DNA of 64,000 nucleotides, from the NCBI GenBank assembly GCA_031416315.1, contig JANOTL010000132.1, positions 16,231 to 80,230 of the forward strand, given 5' to 3'. The DNA is from Pseudomonadota bacterium. Lineage in GTDB: Bacteria; Bdellovibrionota_B; Oligoflexia; Oligoflexales; CAIYRB01. The notes beneath the pieces were generated by a model. It had not been told where the DNA came from and searched no databases. It worked only from the letters and a program-made list of their open reading frames with translations. Within the stretch, counting starts at the first letter, position 1. Each line of letters starts with the position of its first letter. Position numbers and translations under genes: made by a program. Below are positions 12,751 to 22,741 of the stretch, piece by piece.

Positions 12751-14370
12751 ATGAATAAACTCCTCAAAATCGCCGTCATCGTTTGGGCCTCGGCGCAAGG
12801 CGCGCGTTGCGACAGCGAGGCCGGGTTCGCCGGCCTCGGCGGAGCCAAACAAGGCGGGCAACCGAAGCCGAAGCCAGCGGCGACGGAGACCTTGGCCGGC
12901 GGCGCGCCGACGGAAGCGTCGGCTAGCGCGCCGGGGCCGCTCGAGGTACCGGGACCGGGGGCGACGCCGACAACCGCGCACTTGCCCGGACCAGCCGCGG
13001 CTGGCGATGACGTCTTGATCGCGGGTGGTGGCGGGGCGACGGATGCAACGGATGCAACGGATGCAACGGATGCAACGGATGCGACGGATGCGACCGTTGC
13101 CGCCGGAGACGCTGGTGAAGGCACTGACGGCACCGACGCCGCTGATCCCATGACTCCCGTGGTCGGTCCAGTCCCAGGGCCCGCCCCGGCACCGAATCCA
13201 CCGTCACCGCCACCGCCGCCGCCGCTGCCACCGGCACCGCGTTTTCACCTCGTCTACGGCGAGGGATCGAACATCCATCACCTGAGCAACTCGGGAAGCA
13301 ACGGAGCCTGGCAGCGTGTCACAGTGTATGCCGGAGCAGCTTACAGCACTCTGAGCCTGGCGCTCGACGCCAACGACGACCCGATCGTCTCGTACGGCAA
13401 CGCGGCCGGCGGCGATGGGGTGCGCTACGATCGCGCCACGAACGGAACGTGGGCGGCCGCGCACTCCTCGGTCTTCGTGTCGGGACTCAGTACGCACTAC
13501 AATCACCTGGCGGTCGATTCGGCCGGAATCGCGCATGTCGGCGTCTCTGGCGACGGTTATTCGCTCGGCTCACACTACGGAACCGCCGCCGGTTGGACCA
13601 CCGAAGCGGCCGCGAGTCCCGGCACGTGGACTATTCCGCACCAAGCGATCACCGTCGCCATGGACGACGCCGACCGGCCGCACCTTGTTGCGAGCCGCTC
13701 CCTGATGGGAGGCGCAACCGTCGCAGTCTATGTCACACGCGATCCTTCTGACACGACGGCACCCTTCACTTGGCTCGCGCCGGTGACGCGCGGCGCCGCT
13801 TGCGCGACGGCGACGCAGACGGATCTCGCCGTACGAACGGCGTATCCGCCGGAGGTCGCGACACGCGCCGACCATGCGCACATGGTCTTTGTATGCAACG
13901 CGGCGGGCACCGCATCCGTAATCTACGCGACGAATGCTTCCGGAGCGTGGGTCGATCAGACGATCGCGACGACGAGTCTCTCGTCCCGTCCAAGCATCGC
14001 CGTCGGCGCCGACGGTCGCGTCCACGTCGCCGCTCTCGCGAGCGACGGCAAGCAGCTAAACTACTACACGCGCACATCGGGCGCGGCTGGAACATGGTCC
14101 GCGGCAAAGTTGATCGAGGACGGCGGGACAGTATCCACGCCTTCAGCGCCGCAAATCGCGATCGCAGTAGACGGCAAGGTGCACGTGTTCCATCTGCTGA
14201 TTCCCGTCGACGGCACAACGGCCGGGGCGATCCGCCACGCAGCCGACGTCGCGGCGGCCGGGGCGATCGCGCCCGTGTCGATCCGGGACGTCGCCAACGG
14301 GACGCGCCTCGGGCAGAAGGTCGGGATTTCCGGAGCCGAGGGTGTGAGCAATCACGTCTTAGTACCGTAA
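12751..14370 (+). CDS. Secreted/lipoprotein with low-complexity stalk and C-terminal beta-propeller-like repeats
   Basis: ATD repeats, poly-Pro, then six repeats like SIAVGADGRVHV / HLAVDSAGIAHV. Confidence 0.75.
   Translation: MNKLLKIAVIVWASAQGARCDSEAGFAGLGGAKQGGQPKPKPAATETLAGGAPTEASASAPGPLEVPGPGATPTTAHLPGPAAAGDDVLIAGGGGATDATDATDATDATDATDATVAAGDAGEGTDGTDAADPMTPVVGPVPGPAPAPNPPSPPPPPPLPPAPRFHLVYGEGSNIHHLSNSGSNGAWQRVTVYAGAAYSTLSLALDANDDPIVSYGNAAGGDGVRYDRATNGTWAAAHSSVFVSGLSTHYNHLAVDSAGIAHVGVSGDGYSLGSHYGTAAGWTTEAAASPGTWTIPHQAITVAMDDADRPHLVASRSLMGGATVAVYVTRDPSDTTAPFTWLAPVTRGAACATATQTDLAVRTAYPPEVATRADHAHMVFVCNAAGTASVIYATNASGAWVDQTIATTSLSSRPSIAVGADGRVHVAALASDGKQLNYYTRTSGAAGTWSAAKLIEDGGTVSTPSAPQIAIAVDGKVHVFHLLIPVDGTTAGAIRHAADVAAAGAIAPVSIRDVANGTRLGQKVGISGAEGVSNHVLVP
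13036..13095 (+). repeat. 9-bp tandem repeat GCRACGGAT x6 plus partial (encodes ATD)
   Basis: Read directly from sequence. Confidence 0.95.
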
Positions 14371-14371
14371 G

Positions 14372-14935
14372 CTACTGCTTGACGTAAGCCTCAGCCTCGG
14401 ACGAAAGCACGCCCGTCGTCTGGCTCGTAAACTGCAACTTGGTGCCGGTGATCTTGTAGTAGCTGCCCTTGGTCTGACCGACGAAGGTCGTGATCGAAGC
14501 GAAAAGGGCGCAGCCGACGACGGTTTTCTCGACGCCGACGGCCCAGTCGGTCGCGCCGCAGGTCGCGGTCGTGTTGGAGGCGGCGGCGAACTCGGCGGTG
14601 CTCGGAGCGGCGGTGACGTCGGTGACGGCCCAGTTGAGCGGATAAGCGCCGTTCGCATCGGGCTTATTCTTCACGCGCTCGTAGCTTCCCTTCATGCGGA
14701 GCGTAAGCGTCTCGGTACCGGCCGTGCACCCTTCGGCGCTGTACGACTGCGTGACGTTGACGAGCGAGCTGCCAGCGTAGACGTAGGAGTTGACCGACTT
14801 CATGGATCCGCCGCCGCAGGATTGCACCCACGTGCCCGTGGGATCCGGGCCGAGCACGATCTCGTCCTCTTCCTCTTTGCCGCAGCTCCAAGTCAGCAAG
14901 GCGACGACGACGAAAGAGAGGGATAGGCTTCGCAT
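14372..14935 (-). CDS. Hypothetical lipoprotein, beta-rich (lipocalin-like GTW motif)
   Basis: LTWSC lipobox followed by GKEEEDE; PTGTWVQSC. Confidence 0.75.
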   Translation of the reverse strand: MRSLSLSFVVVALLTWSCGKEEEDEIVLGPDPTGTWVQSCGGGSMKSVNSYVYAGSSLVNVTQSYSAEGCTAGTETLTLRMKGSYERVKNKPDANGAYPLNWAVTDVTAAPSTAEFAAASNTTATCGATDWAVGVEKTVVGCALFASITTFVGQTKGSYYKITGTKLQFTSQTTGVLSSEAEAYVKQ

Positions 14936-14965
14936 GGGCGCTCCGCGAGATATGATGGTTTGGGC

Positions 14966-17900
14966 TCATTCGAGGGACTTGAGCTTACCATAGGCCACCA
15001 AGCTTTCGAGGGCGAGACCTTGGATCGAGCCGATCGCCTGCAGCACGCCGAGGTTGGCGCGCAGGAGCTGCTCGTCGGCGGTACGCACCTTGTCCATCGC
15101 AATCGTGCCGGCGCCCCAAGCCGCTTGTAGCGCGGTTTGCGACGCAAGGGCGGCTTCGCGAAGGCTCAAGGCGGCACCGAGCTCCTCCGTCATGCGGGCC
15201 AGGCGGGGGATGAGTCCTTGGCGCGTTTCGGCGAAGCGGTCCTCGAGCTCACGGCGCTGTGCCGCCAGCTCCAAACGGCCGCGCTCGACGTCGCCGACCG
15301 CTCGGCGGCGCGTGCCGCCGTCGAGAAGATTCCAGTTAAGCTCCACGGCGACGACGTGCTGCGGCTTGGTATTGAGATTGCCCTCGAACCAAGTTTGCTG
15401 GCGGGCGAGGCCCAGGCCGAGGGTTGGGTAGAACGCCGCGTCCTGAGCGTCGCGAGCGGCGCGTTGCGATTCCTCGGCGGCGGTCAAAGCGGTGATCGCC
15501 GCGACCTTGGCCTCCGTCTTCGCATCGGCGAAGGCGAAGCGCGGAAGGCCGGGCGGCAGCTGAGGCGGGCGGCCGGTGCGGATTTGCAGCAAGATCGCGA
15601 GCCGCTCTTCCTCGGCGGCGGCGCGCGCCGCATCGAGGCGGGCTTGCTCGCGCGCCGCTTCGGCTTGCACGAGGTCCAAGCGGCTGGAGTTGCCGACGCT
15701 GACGCGGTCTTCGACGGATTTGGCGCGACGCTCGGCGATGCTCAGGGCGTTCTTGATGATGGCGTTCATCTCTCGGGCGATGGCGAATTGTAACAAAGTC
15801 TGCGCATTGCCGACGCGGCGCCCATCGCGGAGCGACTCAATCTGCGGCTCTTGCTGGGCGTCGAGCGCGTTCGCGAGCGAAAGGCCGTACAGAGCTTGCG
15901 CGTTAAAGAGGGGAACCTTCATGCCGACGCTGAACTGATCCTGCTGGCGCGGGAGCACGGGAATCGCGGTCGTGACGGGGCCGCCGAGCTGCGGCGGCAG
16001 CGGGATCGTCATCTCCTGCTCGAAGCCGGGCCGCGCCCACTGGCGGCTGGCCGAGACGTTCAGGCCGCCCAAAAAGGCGAGGCGCGAAGCGTCGCGCGCG
16101 GTCTCCGTGGCGACGTCGACGGCACGGGAGCGCAGGGATTCGGCGCTGCCTTCGGGCGTGGCCGCGACGATCTGGGCCTGCGCGGGTGGCGGCAGCGTGC
16201 CGAAGAGGGCGTAAGCGCGGTCGATGGGCGAACCGGCAGCCGGCGCCTCGGCCCGCGCCCGCGGGGCTTCGAGCGTCGCGACGAGCGCCAGGGGCAGGAG
16301 CAAGCTCGCCGCGCGCGCGGCGGTGGCGAGACGCGCCGGTTTCCGCGTTCGGCCGCGCCATTTGCCGATCAGGCCGAAGATCGCCGGCACGACGATCAAG
16401 GACAAAAGCGTCGAGGAAACGACGCCGCCGATGATGGCGATCGCCATCGGGCTGCGGAACTCGGAGCCGGATCCTTGCATGACGGCGGTCGGCACCATGC
16501 CGGCGACCATCGCGGCGGAGGTCATGAGGATCGGGCGCGAGCGCTCCTTGACGCTGTCCATCACGGCCTGCGCGAGCGGCTGGTCCTTCTCCTTCTTGCC
16601 GATGGCGTCGACGAGCAGAATGCCGTTCTTCGCGGCGAGCCCCATCAAGAAGAGGATGCCGATGATCGAGCCAAGCGCCAGCTGGTGTCCCGCCATTGCG
16701 AGCGCGAAAAAGGCGCCAACGGAGGCGAGGGGCAGGGACAGGATGATGACGAACGGACGCAGCAAGTTCTCGAACTGCGCCGCGAGGATCACGAAGATGA
16801 AGAAGACGGCGGCGGCGATCGCGATGGTGAAGTTGACGATCATCTCTTCGAAGTTCTCGGCGTCGCCGGCGATTTCGGCCGTCATCGGCGCCGGGATCTT
16901 AGCGACGACGTCTTTTTTCACGTCGTTCAGCACTTGGTCAAGGGGGGCCGTCCGATCGAGAGTGGCCCACAAGATGACGGCACGACTGCGCTGCTGCCGG
17001 TCGATCGCGGTCGAGCGCGTCGAGGCCTGCGCGTCCGCGAAGCGATAAAGCGGGGTCGCGCCGCGCATTCCCGGCACGAGCAAAGTCGAGGCGAGGCGGC
17101 CGAACTCGCGATCGCTCTCCTGCACCCGCACATAGAACGGCAGGTTGTCGGCACCGACCGTGCCCGCCTCGAGGCCGGTGATGGCGAGGCGGCCGGTGAG
17201 CTCGACCGCGTCCGCGCCGGCGCCGGCGTACGCGATCTCGTTGCGGTTCAAAAGGACGTCGAACGCGGGCCCGGCGGTTGTCGTGTCGATGCGGGCGTCG
17301 GCTATGCCCTTGATCTTCTTCAAGCTAGCGTGCGCGGCGGATGCGGCCTGATCGAGCGTACCGAGGTCGGTGCCGAAGATCGTGAGCATTACAGGCGCCT
17401 GCATGCCGACGCCCTCGAACGGCGGCGGATCGAGGATGAGCCAGTCGGCGTCGATGCCTTCGAGCTTTTTCCGCGCCGAGTTGATGAGCGAGAGCAGGCC
17501 TTCCTTGCGCTCGGTCTTCGAGATGAAGAGGACACGGAATTCCGCGGTGCCGGCGGCGGTGGCGCCGCCTTCGCTGACGAACACGTCGGTCAAGCCAGGG
17601 AGGTCGGCTAAGCGATCGGCGGCGCCCTTCACCACGGCCTGAAAGGTCGCGCGAGTCATGCCGGGGCGGGATTTCAAGGACAAGACGAACTGGCCGCGGT
17701 CCTCGAAGGCAAGGAAGTCGGTCCCGCGCGCCGCGGTCAGGGCGAGGCCCGAGATCAGGACGCCGATCGTGAGCAGCGCGATGACGAAGGGACGTGCGTA
17801 CGCGACCCCGGCGAGCCGGCCGAAAAAAGCGTCCGAGCGGTGCATCGTGGCGCGCCAACGGTCCCAAAGCTTGCCCTTCAGCATCGAGGGCTCGCCGGCG

Positions 17901-19354
17901 AAACGCGAGGACAGCATCGGATCGAGGGTGAAAGCGACCCACATAGACAGCAGCGTGGCGATGACGATGGTAAGGCCGAATTCGCGGAAAAACTGGCCCA
18001 CGAGGCCGTCCATCATCGCGACGGGGACGAAGACGGCGACGACGGCGAGCGTCGTGGCGAGGACGGCGGAGGCGACTTTGTCGGTGCCGCGGATCGCGGC
18101 TTCGGCGCCGCGATACCCTTGCTCCATCTCCGCGTAGATCGACTCGCGGACGACGACGGCGTCGTCGATCAGGAGACCGATCGCCAGCGCGAGCGCCAGA
18201 AGCGTCAGCATGTTGATCGAGAAACCCAAGAGACTCAGGAAAATGAAGGAGCCGACGACGGCGACCGGGAGCGCGGTCGCCGAGATGATGGCGCTCTTCA
18301 CGTCGGTCAAGAAGAGGAAGATGATGACGACGGCGAAGATGCCGCCGGCGAAGAGCGCGATCCAGACCTCGTGCTCGTTCTCCTTGATCATGTGTGACTG
18401 GTCGACGATCGGAAAAAGGCGCACTCCGGCGGGAAGCTGCGCCTTTTCGAGGACCGCCTTCACCGCGGCGACGGTGGAGACGGTGTTGGCTTCGGCGCGC
18501 TTGGTGACGACTAGACCCAAGCCCTGATTGCCGTTGATGCGGACCGTCTCGGCGTTGGGATCGGTGGTGCGATGGAGCTTGCCGACGTCGGAGAGGCGGA
18601 CGTTGCGGCCGTCGCGAAGGGCGAGCGATTCCTCGGCCCAGTCTTCCGGCTTGTCGCTGGCGACCGTGGCGCCGACGTTGGCGGCGACGCCGCCGTTCTC
18701 GACGGTGCCCCACGGCAGAGTCGCGAGCCGCGCGCGCACGGCGTCGAAGACGTCCAAGGCGGGGACTTTTAGCGCGCTCATCGCGTCGGCATCGAGCGAG
18801 AGCTCGAGCCGCTCTTCGCCGACGCCGACGACTTTCGCCTCGTTCACGCCGTCGACGCGCTGCAGAATTTGCACCAAGCCGTCGTCGAGCAGCTTGCGCG
18901 TCGCCGCGGGCGGCAACGAAGTCTCGATGCCGTAGGTGAGCACCGGCGCGGCGCCGACGTCGATCCGGCGGACGATCGGCTCCTTCGCCTCCTTCGGAAA
19001 AGCGCCGCGCACGGCGGCGACGCGCTCGCGCACGCCTTCGGCCGCTTCGCGCTCGTCGGCGGAGAGGCGAAACTCGAGGATGACGAAGGCGTAGTCGGTC
19101 CGCGCGTTGGCCGTGACACGCTTCAAGCCCTTGAGGCCGGCGAACGAGGATTCCAGGGGCTTGACGATGCGTGCCTCGACCTGCTCGGGCGTGGCGCCGG
19201 GGTAGGGGACCATCACCGAGACGAACGGGAAGGTGACGTTCGGCCAAAGCGACACCGGCAACTTCGACATGTAGAAGAAGCCGACGACGAAGAGCGCGAC
19301 GCTGATAATGCCGGCCGTGACCGGGCGCGCGACGGAGAAACGGGCTAAGTTCAT
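14966..19354 (-). CDS. RND efflux permease (AcrB/HAE1-like) fused in frame to a TolC-family outer-membrane factor (1462 aa)
   Basis: Start MNLARFSVARP (ATGA overlap); YPGATPEQVE, LLIDDAVVVRE, LAAKNGILLVD, RSRPILMT; then OEP motifs VPLFNA, FYPTLGL, WNLLDGG. Confidence 0.93.
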   Translation of the reverse strand: MNLARFSVARPVTAGIISVALFVVGFFYMSKLPVSLWPNVTFPFVSVMVPYPGATPEQVEARIVKPLESSFAGLKGLKRVTANARTDYAFVILEFRLSADEREAAEGVRERVAAVRGAFPKEAKEPIVRRIDVGAAPVLTYGIETSLPPAATRKLLDDGLVQILQRVDGVNEAKVVGVGEERLELSLDADAMSALKVPALDVFDAVRARLATLPWGTVENGGVAANVGATVASDKPEDWAEESLALRDGRNVRLSDVGKLHRTTDPNAETVRINGNQGLGLVVTKRAEANTVSTVAAVKAVLEKAQLPAGVRLFPIVDQSHMIKENEHEVWIALFAGGIFAVVIIFLFLTDVKSAIISATALPVAVVGSFIFLSLLGFSINMLTLLALALAIGLLIDDAVVVRESIYAEMEQGYRGAEAAIRGTDKVASAVLATTLAVVAVFVPVAMMDGLVGQFFREFGLTIVIATLLSMWVAFTLDPMLSSRFAGEPSMLKGKLWDRWRATMHRSDAFFGRLAGVAYARPFVIALLTIGVLISGLALTAARGTDFLAFEDRGQFVLSLKSRPGMTRATFQAVVKGAADRLADLPGLTDVFVSEGGATAAGTAEFRVLFISKTERKEGLLSLINSARKKLEGIDADWLILDPPPFEGVGMQAPVMLTIFGTDLGTLDQAASAAHASLKKIKGIADARIDTTTAGPAFDVLLNRNEIAYAGAGADAVELTGRLAITGLEAGTVGADNLPFYVRVQESDREFGRLASTLLVPGMRGATPLYRFADAQASTRSTAIDRQQRSRAVILWATLDRTAPLDQVLNDVKKDVVAKIPAPMTAEIAGDAENFEEMIVNFTIAIAAAVFFIFVILAAQFENLLRPFVIILSLPLASVGAFFALAMAGHQLALGSIIGILFLMGLAAKNGILLVDAIGKKEKDQPLAQAVMDSVKERSRPILMTSAAMVAGMVPTAVMQGSGSEFRSPMAIAIIGGVVSSTLLSLIVVPAIFGLIGKWRGRTRKPARLATAARAASLLLPLALVATLEAPRARAEAPAAGSPIDRAYALFGTLPPPAQAQIVAATPEGSAESLRSRAVDVATETARDASRLAFLGGLNVSASRQWARPGFEQEMTIPLPPQLGGPVTTAIPVLPRQQDQFSVGMKVPLFNAQALYGLSLANALDAQQEPQIESLRDGRRVGNAQTLLQFAIAREMNAIIKNALSIAERRAKSVEDRVSVGNSSRLDLVQAEAAREQARLDAARAAAEEERLAILLQIRTGRPPQLPPGLPRFAFADAKTEAKVAAITALTAAEESQRAARDAQDAAFYPTLGLGLARQQTWFEGNLNTKPQHVVAVELNWNLLDGGTRRRAVGDVERGRLELAAQRRELEDRFAETRQGLIPRLARMTEELGAALSLREAALASQTALQAAWGAGTIAMDKVRTADEQLLRANLGVLQAIGSIQGLALESLVAYGKLKSLE

Positions 19355-19896
19355 TTGCAGTCCGCCTTCGTCGCGTCGACGTAGCCGAGGGAGGTGCCGT
19401 ACTGCACGAAGAGGCCCTTCACCTGCGGAACGCCGCGCACGATGCCGGCGACTTCGGCGCGGATCTTGGTGTCGGCGATCTGGATCTTCAGGCGGTCGAG
19501 GGCGGCCTCCGCTTGCGCGCGGGCGGCGCGCGCTTGAGCGAGGCGCAGACGCGACTCCACCTTTTGCTGGTCGGAGAGCGTGTCGGAGGCCTGCAGGCGC
19601 TGGATGCGGTCGAAGCCGTCTTTGGCGAGCGCCTCGCTCGCGCGGGCGACTTCGAGCGCGGCCTCGCCTTCCTTCAGGCCAGCGACGAGCAGGCGGTCGT
19701 CGAGCGCGACGATGAGGTCGCCGACGGCGACGGCGTCGGCCGGCTTCTTGTGGATGGAGGTGACGATGCCGGCGGTTCTCGCCGTCAGATCCTGACGCGG
19801 GACGCACAGCGCGGGCGGCGCCTCGGCGGCGAGCCCCGCGGTCGTGATCGTGGTCTGGGCCAAGAGGAGGATGAACAGGGCGATGCGCTGGCTCAT
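19351..19896 (-). CDS. Miniature periplasmic adaptor (MFP/HlyD-like), lipoyl + alpha-hairpin only
   Basis: TAGIVTSIHKKPADAVAVGDLIVALD, coiled coil, TKIRAEVAGIV; 181 aa; ATGA overlaps on both sides. Confidence 0.85.
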   Translation of the reverse strand: MSQRIALFILLLAQTTITTAGLAAEAPPALCVPRQDLTARTAGIVTSIHKKPADAVAVGDLIVALDDRLLVAGLKEGEAALEVARASEALAKDGFDRIQRLQASDTLSDQQKVESRLRLAQARAARAQAEAALDRLKIQIADTKIRAEVAGIVRGVPQVKGLFVQYGTSLGYVDATKADCK

Positions 19897-20534
19897 TTGC
19901 TGCTGCCTTTCGTGGGCGACCCGTCGGGGCGTAGCCCACGGGAGAAAATCTTGGCGAGGGTGTCGATCATCGAGGCGTCGTCGGCTTTCTTCGCGTTGAA
20001 GAGACCGCAGGCGACGAAGGAGTCACGCGCGAGCAACCAGTAGTCTGCGCAAGAGATTGCCGCGGCCGCGATGAGCGCGGGGTCTAAGTCTTTGCGGACG
20101 GTGCCCGCCTTTTGCGCGGCCGAGATCCGGGCGACCTCGTACTGCAGGAGCGCGTCGCCCACGGGGTTCTTCATCGCGGCGTTGTCGATGATGGCCCAGG
20201 CGAGGAGGCGCACGAATTTGGGGTTTTCCCGGGCGAAGCGGAAGTAGTTGGCGACGTCGGCGGCAAGGCTCGCCTCATCGAGGGCGAAAGAGGCGGCGGC
20301 GTTGGCCGCGCCGGCCTCGGCGCGCACCGCGGTCAGCGTGGCGAACAGGCGCTCGAAGGCGGCTTGCCAAAGCGCGTCCTTGGCGCCGAAATGGTGCACG
20401 ATCAGGCCCTTACTGACGTCCGCGCGCTTCGCGATCGCGCCGATCGAGGCTCCCGCGTAGCCACGCGCGAGGAACTCGCTCTCGGCCGCGTCGAGGATCT
20501 TGCTGCGGGTGGCTTCCGGGTCGTAGCGGCTCAT
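19893..20534 (-). CDS. TetR/AcrR family transcriptional regulator
   Basis: TRSKILDAAESEFLARGYAGASIGAIAKRADVSKGLIVHHFGAKDAL. Confidence 0.93.
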   Translation of the reverse strand: MSRYDPEATRSKILDAAESEFLARGYAGASIGAIAKRADVSKGLIVHHFGAKDALWQAAFERLFATLTAVRAEAGAANAAASFALDEASLAADVANYFRFARENPKFVRLLAWAIIDNAAMKNPVGDALLQYEVARISAAQKAGTVRKDLDPALIAAAAISCADYWLLARDSFVACGLFNAKKADDASMIDTLAKIFSRGLRPDGSPTKGSSK

Positions 20535-20570
20535 GAGGGTCGTCTCGCATTCAAACGATCGTTCCACTTA

Positions 20571-20618
20571 TCGTACTATCGTACGACAAACTTTACGACC
20601 GTACTATATTTTCTTCAA
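20571..20618 (-). promoter_or_regulatory. Promoter and probable TetR operator(s) of the efflux operon
   Basis: TTGAAG-N17-TAAAGT (20618-20590); palindrome TCGTAC-tatc-GTACGA at 20571-20586 and a related copy TACGACCGTACTA in the spacer. Confidence 0.65.
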
Positions 20619-20673
20619 TGTGGCTGATTGGGCGGGATTTTGCCAGGATCGGCAGATCAGCAGGAGGCCTCGC

Positions 20674-21552
20674 ATGTCACGTCTCGACGAAGAGCTGGTC
20701 GAGCCGAGCTCGACCCAGGTCACCTACGGGCGCTACCTGAAAATCGATCAGCTGGTCGCGCTCCAGCAGCCTCTCACCGTGCCCTTGGCGCACGACGAGA
20801 CGCTCTTCATCATCATCCATCAGGTGTACGAGCTCTGGTTCAAGCAGATCCTGCACGAGCTGGCGCTGGCCGAGACGGCGATGCAAGGCGGGCAGCTCGG
20901 CGCGTTCAACCGCATCGTGAAGCGAATCACGACGATCCAGTCGGTGCTCACGCATCAGGTCGACGTCCTCGAGACGATGACGCCGGTCGACTTCAACCGG
21001 TTCCGCGAGAAGCTCAACCCGGCGAGCGGCTTCCAGAGTCAGCAGTTCCGCGAGCTCGAGTACCGGCTCGGCGGCAAGGAGCAGAGCTACCTCAAGTTCT
21101 ATCGGACGGAGACCGAGGCGCGCGCGCGGCTCGAGCGGGCGATCGAGGCCCCCACCGTCTACGACCACTTCCTGCGGCTTCTGGCGAAACGGGGCTTCCC
21201 GGTGCCGAAGGACGTGCTCGAGCGCGACGTGCGCCAGCCCTACGCCGCCTCGGACGGCGTGACCCAGGCGATTCTCCAGGTTTATCAGGCCGTAGAGAAG
21301 CACTATGATCTATACTCGACCCTCGAATCCCTGATCGATCTGGACGAAGGCATCCTGCTCTGGCGCATGCGACACGTCGCCATGGTCGAGCGGATGATCG
21401 GCACCCGCAAAGGCACCGGCGGCTCCAGCGGCGTGAAGTACCTGACGGCGACCTTGTCGCGCCGGTTCTTCCCCGAGATCTGGGACGTGCGGAATCACCT
21501 CGGAGTCAGCAACTATGGCGAATCCCCCTCCCCTCAGCCGGGCCCAAAGTAA
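20674..21552 (+). CDS. kynA: Tryptophan 2,3-dioxygenase
   Basis: AGGAGG SD; YGRYL, HDETLFIIIHQVYELWFKQ, GFQSQQFR, GTGGSSG. Confidence 0.95.
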   Translation: MSRLDEELVEPSSTQVTYGRYLKIDQLVALQQPLTVPLAHDETLFIIIHQVYELWFKQILHELALAETAMQGGQLGAFNRIVKRITTIQSVLTHQVDVLETMTPVDFNRFREKLNPASGFQSQQFRELEYRLGGKEQSYLKFYRTETEARARLERAIEAPTVYDHFLRLLAKRGFPVPKDVLERDVRQPYAASDGVTQAILQVYQAVEKHYDLYSTLESLIDLDEGILLWRMRHVAMVERMIGTRKGTGGSSGVKYLTATLSRRFFPEIWDVRNHLGVSNYGESPSPQPGPK

Positions 21553-22741
21553 GATCAACAAGGTCACGGCCGAGCTCGAGCAGTACCCGATGGAGGAGCT
21601 CACGCGGATCCGCAAGGAGCTGGTGAAGAAGGGTAAGCCCGTCTACGACTTCGGCACCGGCGACCCGCGCATCCCGACGTGGGAGCCGATTCGCCAGGCG
21701 CTCCTCGCGGGGATCCCGGAGATCAGCCAGTATCCGAGCGTCAAAGGCACCGACGAGCTCCGGACCGCGCAGCAGGGCTATCTCGAGCGCCGCTTCGGCT
21801 TGGACGCCTCGAAGTACGAGATCATCCCGACGGCCGGCAGCAAGGAGGCGATCTTCCACGTCGCGCTCTGTCTCGTGGGCCGCGCCAACGGGAAAAAGCA
21901 CATCATCTATCCGGATCCGGGCTATCCGGTGTACCGGAGCTCGACCAAGTTCGCGGGCGGGATTCCGTTCCCCGTGACCTTGTCTTCGAATAACGGCTTC
22001 TTGCTGGAGCCGTGGGAGCTGCCGCCTTACATCCAGCGCGACGCGGCGGCGATTTGGCTCAATTATCCGCACAATCCGACGGGCGCCACGGCGAATCGCG
22101 AGTATTGGGAGCGTTGCGTCGAGTGGGCGCACAAGACCGACACGATTCTCCTGTCCGACGATTGCTACATCGACATCTACGACTCCGCCTTGGATTCCAA
22201 GCCGGTCGAGGATCCGAACGACGACGAGCGGCCGATCTGCCCGCTGCAGATCAGCAGCGACCGCGTGCTGACGTTCATGAGCCTTTCGAAGCGCTCCGGG
22301 ATGACGGGCTATCGCTCGGGCCTGATCGCGGGCGATCCGGAGATCGTCCAGGCCCTGTTGAAGGCGCGCGCGAACTTCGGCGTCGGCTCGCCCGGCTTCG
22401 TCGACGCCGCGGCGGTGGTCGCCTGGAACGACGACGAGCACGTGCGCGAGCGCCGGAAGATCTTCACGCAGCGGATCGCGACGGTGGCGCCGGTGTTCCA
22501 GAAGCTCGGGCTCTTGGACGAGATCCCGAAGGCGACGTTCTACCTGTGGACGAAAGTGCCGGGAGCGTTCGGCAACGGCGACGTGCGCTACGCCCTGACG
22601 CTGGCGGAGCACGGGATCATCGCGAGCCCGTCGTCGTGGCTTTCGGAGGGAGTGAAGGGCTTTTGCCGCTTCGCGCTGGTGCCGGGCGACGTAGAGACGG
22701 CCGAGGCGATGACGATCATCAGCGATTTCGTGAACGACTGA
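21515..22741 (+). CDS. PLP-dependent class I/II aminotransferase (DapC-like)
   Basis: GSKEAIF, NYPHNPTG, SDDCY, SLSKRSGMTGYRSG. Confidence 0.9.
   Translation: MANPPPLSRAQSKINKVTAELEQYPMEELTRIRKELVKKGKPVYDFGTGDPRIPTWEPIRQALLAGIPEISQYPSVKGTDELRTAQQGYLERRFGLDASKYEIIPTAGSKEAIFHVALCLVGRANGKKHIIYPDPGYPVYRSSTKFAGGIPFPVTLSSNNGFLLEPWELPPYIQRDAAAIWLNYPHNPTGATANREYWERCVEWAHKTDTILLSDDCYIDIYDSALDSKPVEDPNDDERPICPLQISSDRVLTFMSLSKRSGMTGYRSGLIAGDPEIVQALLKARANFGVGSPGFVDAAAVVAWNDDEHVRERRKIFTQRIATVAPVFQKLGLLDEIPKATFYLWTKVPGAFGNGDVRYALTLAEHGIIASPSSWLSEGVKGFCRFALVPGDVETAEAMTIISDFVND

Follow-up and report, generated by a model that had tools for sequence, protein, structure and literature searches.

A probable cleaved efflux polyprotein: an RND permease and a TolC-type channel encoded in one reading frame, with a half-size adaptor, in an Oligoflexales bacterium

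Can one reading frame supply both membranes of a bacterial cell envelope? This question is raised by a gene on the minus strand of a 64,000-nucleotide (nt) stretch of DNA, referred to below as the window, from a Pseudomonadota bacterium assigned to the Oligoflexales (GenBank assembly GCA_031416315.1, contig JANOTL010000132.1). The gene encodes a permease of the resistance-nodulation-division (RND) type that runs on, in frame, into a TolC-type outer membrane factor (OMF), and a first-pass annotation of the window had described its product as a candidate cleaved polyprotein. The families of all components are known, and the system is most likely a variant of the tripartite RND exporters whose permease and channel are made as a cleaved polyprotein. 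We regard it as probable, with good confidence, that the chain is cut by signal peptidase I (SPase I) at the junction and that the two halves reach different membranes. If it is cut as predicted, one reading frame yields proteins for two membranes, an arrangement that annotation tools miss; most of the labels that we saw on such fusions name the permease alone, TolC alone, or a hypothetical protein. The gene is composed as follows (aa, amino acids; TM, transmembrane helix).

14966..19354, minus strand: RND-OMF fusion gene, a single frame of 1462 aa (155.9 kDa)
16364..19354, minus strand: RND permease, aa 1-997 (Pfam PF00873, hydropathy, invariant columns)
16364-16444, minus strand: TM12, the last permease helix (hydropathy)
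16304..16363, minus strand: basic n-region, aa 998-1017, with no in-frame ATG, GTG or TTG
16271..16303, minus strand: h-region of 11 residues, aa 1018-1028 (hydropathy, site rule)
16250..16270, minus strand: c-region ending in Ala-Arg-Ala (aa 1033-1035), with a predicted SPase I site between ARA and E
14969..16249, minus strand: TolC-type OMF, aa 1036-1462, 427 aa (45.8 kDa; Pfam OEP, AlphaFold2, Foldseek)

Translation of the minus strand from 19354 to 14966 gives 1462 aa with zero internal stops, and the AcrB-like permease continues into TolC/OEP sequence without a stop, as had been claimed. The Pfam model ACR_tran (PF00873) covers aa 4-996 (profile positions 2-1020 of 1021, E 3.5e-200), and the closest PDB sequence match of the RND part, MdtB (9lyq, E 1.6e-96), aligns end to end; together with the hydropathy profile, these matches describe a full-length 12-helix RND fold with two large periplasmic loops. 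The proton-relay motifs are intact, again in agreement with the first-pass annotation: IDDA starts at aa 396, AAKN at aa 907 and RPILMT at aa 940, and the residues D397, D398, K909, R940 and T945 are invariant in all 17 aligned RND parts. These correspond to an Asp-Asp pair in TM4, a Lys in TM10, and an Arg and a Thr at TM11, which we take to be the equivalents of the AcrB proton relay. In the C-terminal part, Pfam OEP (PF02321) matches two stretches (E 5.5e-17). An AlphaFold2 model of the junction and the channel, built with 20 sequences (mean predicted local distance difference test score, pLDDT, 77.5), has the two strand pairs and the long alpha-barrel helices of an OMF, whereas the junction is disordered. 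The channel model matches TolC (1ek9) with a Foldseek E value of 3.6e-16 and, in VIA-align, with a Z score of 24.5 and a root mean square deviation of 4.9 Å over 385 aligned residues; the equivalent of TolC residue 1 is model residue 90, that is, aa 1057. Thus, the two OEP repeats, the four barrel strands and the alpha-barrel helices that define an OMF are all present.

The permease does not belong to the heavy-metal efflux (HME; CusA/CzcA) type, for which the model TIGR00914 reaches 331 bits against a cut-off of 701 and is outscored by five multidrug models. The top NCBIfam RND model, NF033617, reaches 617 bits against a cut-off of 1250, so that the permease falls below the cut-off of every NCBIfam RND family, and the trees described below contain no reference pumps. 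The substrates are likely to be hydrophobic or amphiphilic small molecules.

A fusion of this kind might reflect an assembly error or a recent, non-functional read-through. One Logan contig spans positions 14800-20000 with 0 differences, and this only spanning contig may itself be the source of the window DNA. Exact matches to 16322-16472 come from two 151-nt records of one other study, but these extend less than 31 nt past the would-be stop and thus lend weak support. The comparison of genomes decides the matter. Of the 131 genomes of the class, 23 matched a junction-plus-channel query, 20 of them over the query length and 3 only via the TM12 of other RNDs; in all 20 genomes with the full match, the match is in frame with RND sequence, the RND part being cut by a contig end in 2 of these loci. 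Similarly, among the 38 best protein-database matches to the RND part (at least 51% identity), 36 exceed 1300 aa, and the remaining pair consists of a record labelled partial and protein P0218, which keeps the junction and is split inside the channel. The relatives are labelled Oligoflexales, Silvanigrellales or Oligoflexia. Because the same in-frame fusion, with intact catalytic residues, is conserved in dozens of independent assemblies at 51-71% RND identity, this comparison confirms that the fusion is real and no artefact, and an assembly error is hardly conceivable even when the split relative (P0218 with P0046) is taken into account. The distribution is patchy, with the fusion in 1 of the 11 other genomes of the window's family and in 17 of 33 genomes of one other family; the junction-plus-channel query had no match in a plasmid collection. 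As a separate observation, the longest contig of both P0218 and P0046 has 8716 bases, and the split in this clade member is either a frameshift error or a real break.

What, then, is the junction? It comprises aa 998-1035, from K998 at 16363 to A1035, which ends at 16250, and it reads as the first-pass annotation had it for about 16250-16365, namely as a basic n-region, a hydrophobic h-region and an A-x-A site. To compare it across the clade, we assembled 28 junctions from the 20 loci and 8 database proteins, with P0007 omitted as a duplicate. Sites were scored by a rule of our own, [AVSTG]-x-A within 3-12 residues after the end of the h-region, with positive and negative controls; TM1 and TM7 were used as controls because their inferred orientation is that of the junction segment and they are not cut. 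An earlier, looser rule that scored sites inside TM7 (12/22) was dropped in favor of this one, which is anchored on the end of the h-region.

In the 20 loci, the mean pairwise identity is 0.86 for TM12, 0.21 for the junction and 0.52 for the channel, and the 28 junctions range in length from 34 to 73 aa, with the frame always kept. On this variable sequence, the net charge of the n-region is positive in 28/28 junctions, and a small-x-Ala site is present in 26/28, against 15.5 expected from shuffled tails. When the set was thinned to less than 45% channel identity, the site was found in 12 of 13 junctions, against 6.6 expected (simulated P 0.0012). In the controls, the site was present in 0/23 for TM1 and 5/22 for TM7, compared with 11/17 for the adaptors' own N-terminal signals and 67/106 for free-standing TolC-like proteins. 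The mean h-region length is 10.5 residues in the junctions, 14.0 in TM1, 15.6 in TM7 and 10.9 in free-standing OMFs (n=106), and the best 19-residue hydropathy values are 1.70, 2.25, 2.44 and 1.61, respectively. The junctions score like the signal peptides of free-standing TolCs and unlike TM1 or TM7.

Ordinary SPase I substrates usually carry Gln, Glu or Ala at position +1. The same three residues are the most frequent ones at +1 of the junction sites. By our rule, the junction has a basic n-region, a short h-region and small residues at -3 and -1, as expected of a Sec/SPase I signal. Several points weigh against this reading. Ala-rich sequence often contains the loose motif, which is present in 53% of the 15-residue windows of the mature channel; a strict AxA is present in only 15/28 junctions; the site is absent by the rule in 2/28 junctions and in 6/28 of a later search, in which 22/28 clade sequences, several of them repeating loci counted before, had it; and many of the 28 junctions come from one genus and are non-independent. 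Moreover, the evidence for the site is our own rule applied to sequence, from which we infer the cleavage itself.

Instead of being cut out of a precursor, the channel could be made as a pre-protein of its own by ribosomes that restart inside the gene, in which case the in-frame fusion would be incidental. Some in-frame ATG, GTG or TTG lies between the end of TM12 and the h-region in 13/20 loci, and in four loci such a codon has Shine-Dalgarno pairing of -4 kcal/mol or better. However, the positions of these codons are not conserved, 16% of random in-frame codons of the same kind pair equally well, and an ATG is found in the n-region in only 2/20 loci. In the window, the n-region contains no start codon, and the nearest GTG lies in TM12 and lacks Shine-Dalgarno pairing (+0.6). 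A restart would also leave unexplained why the frame is kept through insertions and deletions in 28/28 junctions. An internal restart is therefore unlikely, and we give it very little weight.

In the cleavage that we propose, the 12-helix permease would be inserted co-translationally, with its C-terminal end in the cytoplasm. The basic n-region would stay inside, and the short h-region would act as a 13th segment that re-enters Sec, which would thread the 427-aa channel domain into the periplasm. SPase I would then cut after Ala1035, so that the signal would remain attached to the permease as its C-terminal helix, and the freed channel would travel to the outer membrane by the ordinary chaperone and beta-barrel assembly machinery (BAM) route. 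Three permease and three channel chains would assemble, bridged by a separately encoded stub adaptor, with its hairpin tips touching the channel and its lipoyl ring seated on the funnel of the permease. The 1:1 ratio of pump to channel would follow from the common precursor.

Alternatively, the chain might stay whole, with the 13th segment as a permanent anchor and a tethered channel that works in place, perhaps offsetting the reduced adaptor. Such a tether might indeed be useful with an adaptor that lacks the beta-barrel and membrane-proximal domains, and a minority of the junctions have no site by the rule. The geometry argues otherwise. PMC8277102 describes the periplasmic part of AcrB as 40 + 30 Å high (70 Å) and places OMF helix H1 at the middle of the 100 Å barrel; therefore, on these figures, at least about 120 Å would be needed even for direct contact between pump and channel. 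In six homologues, only 13-22 residues (at most 84 Å when stretched) separate the h-region from the conserved Met that starts H1, and in the 24 of 28 sequences in which this anchor was found the spacing is 13-43 residues. The window protein has 15 residues from the h-region to the first predicted helix. Two values count against cleavage here: the window protein has 29 residues up to the equivalent of TolC residue 1, which when stretched reach at most 110 Å, barely below 120 Å, and some homologues have linkers of up to 43 residues. An uncut tether is thus unlikely: in the shortest homologues the linker is too short for a seated channel to be reached, and for the window protein alone the margin is small. 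In addition, the junction segment is shorter and less hydrophobic than TM1 and TM7 and its sequence is not conserved, and the stub is also found ahead of a sister RND that is not fused (locus L111), where it would work without any tether. A permanently whole chain is accordingly improbable in our judgement.

We rate as similarly improbable a cut by another protease, at another site, or a partial cut that gives a mixture of precursor and product. Junctions differ in how many sites they have and where, some members lack a site under the rule, and P0006 carries a Cys after the h-region as a possible lipobox. Against this stand the enrichment over shuffled sequences of Ala at -1 in combination with a small -3 residue, the preferred residues at +1, and the absence of any conserved Cys.

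If SPase I divides the chain, how did the fused gene arise? A profile search of 1.84 billion representatives retrieved 9 proteins with E <1e-30, 8 of which are fusions or pieces of fusions. The ninth, P0048 (425 aa), is a channel encoded on its own, with an N-terminal signal that stands directly ahead of H1; the free-standing TolC P0190 likewise has an N-terminal signal of its own. A candidate for the clade's free-standing channel, P0042 (433 aa), was rejected: it starts at a Met past the predicted cut, has no signal and lies on a 3.2-kb contig, and it was taken to be a gene call on a partial contig. In the corresponding search with the RND part, a single protein without the fusion stood well above background, namely P0223 (1002 aa, 44%), with a stop just after TM12. 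The longest contigs of the P0223 and P0190 clusters agree in three sizes (46174, 17233 and 14821), which makes it very likely that the two genes share these contigs; this adjacency is read from contig sizes and not from DNA, which counts against it. In metagenome scans, no DNA of the free-standing P0190 was found, and P0223 yielded one 1.5-kb contig.

In the RND tree (49 selected rows, LG+G4, quick search), the 22 fused rows form a clade that leaves out P0223 and P0232, with 99% support in the SH-like approximate likelihood ratio test (SH-aLRT). The first-pass annotation had named relatives with separate genes and an internal start as evidence that would speak against a polyprotein. Separate genes do exist, outside the fused clade, and no internal start is conserved; such genes most likely represent the ancestral state and leave the polyprotein reading intact. 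Since RND and TolC are encoded separately in the sister lineage, loss of a stop codon is the likely origin of the fusion, most likely through a single event at the base of the clade, in a stub-rnd-tolC operon. It was most likely kept for giving both trimeric parts in a 1:1 ratio. Taken together, the n-, h- and c-regions conserved on a hypervariable sequence, the lack of a conserved start, the short linkers, and a signal of its own at the same place in the sister TolC support the proposal of an internal Sec/SPase I signal.

The earlier reading had missed that the adaptor encoded directly upstream is of half size; its gene belongs to the same operon as a gene for a regulator.

19351..19896, minus strand: stub periplasmic adaptor, 181 aa, matching 27-166 of 322 of TIGR01730; its stop overlaps the fusion ATG
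19893..20567, minus strand: TetR-family regulator (Pfam TetR_N, E 6.3e-14); its stop overlaps the adaptor ATG

The stub has a signal-peptide-like N-terminus without a lipobox, the lipoyl halves and an alpha-hairpin only; of the four parts of a canonical adaptor (hairpin, lipoyl, beta-barrel and membrane-proximal domains), the last two are missing. In 17/17 stubs, two Cys, one at each end (Cys31 and Cys180 in the window), are 149-156 residues apart, and the protein ends 1-10 residues past the C-terminal Cys. From this we infer a disulfide that would close both ends of the stub. A single-sequence AlphaFold2 model of the stub was poor (mean pLDDT 55.6) and was not used. The ESM Atlas contained generic adaptor and TolC clusters; its short adaptor clusters are possibly fragments and were not used either.

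The stub lies directly upstream of the fusion in 17/17 loci with upstream DNA present, as well as in one locus fetched later. Strong matches occur in 19/131 genomes, every one of them with the fusion. The remaining fusion genome has a completeness of 76%, and there the contig breaks off within the gene. In L111, an unfused relative of P0223 is preceded by a stub whose C-terminal end is the same, its 5' end being broken or ambiguous. Because of this, the shrinkage of the adaptor likely preceded the fusion, and the idea that the fusion caused the shrinkage was rejected. Does the stub bridge permease and channel? We lean slightly towards this view; alternatively, a full-length adaptor is borrowed from another operon. 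The genome encodes five other adaptor matches above the TIGR01730 cut-off, so that the stub need not be the working adaptor, a point against its bridging role, and other free-standing OMFs are also encoded. Pump models are 3:6:3, with the adaptor in six copies (PMC4446572); that only the trimeric parts are fused while the six-copy adaptor is separate fits a stoichiometric benefit, and is no proof of it.

Reduced adaptors are known, such as BesA, which lacks the hairpin, and EmrA, which lacks the membrane-proximal domain, so that each is without one of the four core domains (PMC4446572; PMC8277102). The stub, in contrast, is missing two of them, the beta-barrel and the membrane-proximal domain, and carries a conserved Cys at either end, a form not mentioned in the available parts of these two papers. 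It is a natural deletion experiment on the question of which adaptor domains an RND pump needs. Tentatively, and with slightly less than even confidence, we suggest a two-gene exporter for which an SPase-split chain and a disulfide-closed lipoyl-hairpin mini-adaptor suffice, the RND-gripping adaptor domains being dispensable.

In the next-closest RND operons, the adaptors of L110 (L110:1857-2822, G000:C191), L004 and L020 end 83-92 residues past the stub-like part, which suggests that they have a barrel but no membrane-proximal domain. In L012 and L018, an OMF gene directly precedes the RND gene, with no adaptor between them. There may thus be a tendency towards smaller adaptors among these RNDs.

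Is the clade of the window the only one with such a fusion? Three distant RND fusions of 1473-1551 aa from genomes of the same taxonomic order (L106, 88-4740; L107, 1116-5540; L108, 3635-8053) have basic, hydrophobic, AxA junctions, and signal-like junctions are likewise present in five other fusions, of 12 tried, in which our pattern could locate the junction (P0011, P0019, P0024, P0244 and P0262). The fused state requires 5 changes on both trees, and a single clade of all fused RNDs was rejected in the approximately unbiased test (p-AU 0.0001). Thus, on these trees, RND-TolC fusion arose several times. The window fusion and several others score best as multidrug or hydrophobe/amphiphile efflux (HAE)-type RNDs, contrary to the first-pass statement that RND-OMF fusions are annotated mainly for CusA/CzcA-type pumps in Bacteroidota. 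The other natural fusions, CzcA-type as well as HAE-type, share the layout and the signal-like junction; they are of separate origin, however, and the clade of the window is marked by its stub adaptor and its known unfused sister lineage. JGI labels some such fusions 'AcrB/outer membrane protein TolC'. Neither natural RND-OMF fusions nor polyproteins with an internal signal were the subject of any paper that we found in the open-access literature, although subscription papers and supplements may bear on the subject, and no natural RND-OMF fusion is mentioned in the available parts of PMC8277102, PMC4446572, PMC5837995, PMC10872679, PMC4827864, PMC10434189 and PMC7726332.

The system resembles AcrAB-TolC, MexAB-OprM and MdtABC-TolC in its permease fold, proton-relay motifs, TolC fold, and an adaptor gene together with a TetR gene in one operon. 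It differs from them in that permease and channel are one gene and the adaptor consists of lipoyl and hairpin parts only.

For the cut itself, a parallel is offered by FbcH of Bradyrhizobium japonicum, reportedly a precursor of cytochrome b and cytochrome c1 in which a cleaved internal signal comes after a multi-helix membrane protein. We know of no other precedent in which a membrane precursor of a bacterium is processed in this way. In both cases one gene would give two proteins via an internal signal, here judged from signs in the sequence alone. Both FbcH products are said to stay at the inner membrane, whereas the second product of the window gene must reach the outer membrane.

The contribution of this locus is twofold: a sister lineage without the fusion, and a conserved adaptor of half the usual size. 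The separate genes of the sister lineage allow a direct comparison, which makes the clade a good test case, and the junction offers a natural case for learning how Sec and SPase I cope with a signal that comes 1000 residues into a membrane protein. If the two-gene exporter suggested above is real, the repeated independent origins would make internal signal peptides a general, overlooked route to two-membrane machines from one frame.

The surroundings of the operon vary. The TetR gene, the product of which is likely to be a local repressor, is absent from the same place in the relatives checked, where other genes are found, and a promoter and terminator scan gave nothing useful on the operon strand. 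A gene for 187 aa at 14372-14935 (minus strand), 31 nt past the fusion stop, has a signal-like N-terminus and a Cys as a possible lipobox; it has no Pfam or NCBIfam match and is likewise absent from this place in the relatives checked. Next to it, at 12751-14370 (plus strand), lies a gene for 539 aa with a signal-like start and a long low-complexity stretch of Pro, Ala, Thr and Asp with DAT repeats, the C-terminal part being repeat-like; it has no Pfam match. In L068, a divergent cluster of an FtsX/MacB permease, a LolA-like protein and an ABC ATPase adjoins the stub (L068:2881-6855, minus strand). At the same place in L069, L075, L080 and L081, no match to this cluster was found, and three of these loci have a 5'-nucleotidase gene instead. 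Upstream of the TetR gene of the window, and divergent from it, are genes for a tryptophan 2,3-dioxygenase (20533-21552, plus strand) and a DapC-like aminotransferase (21515-22741, plus strand).

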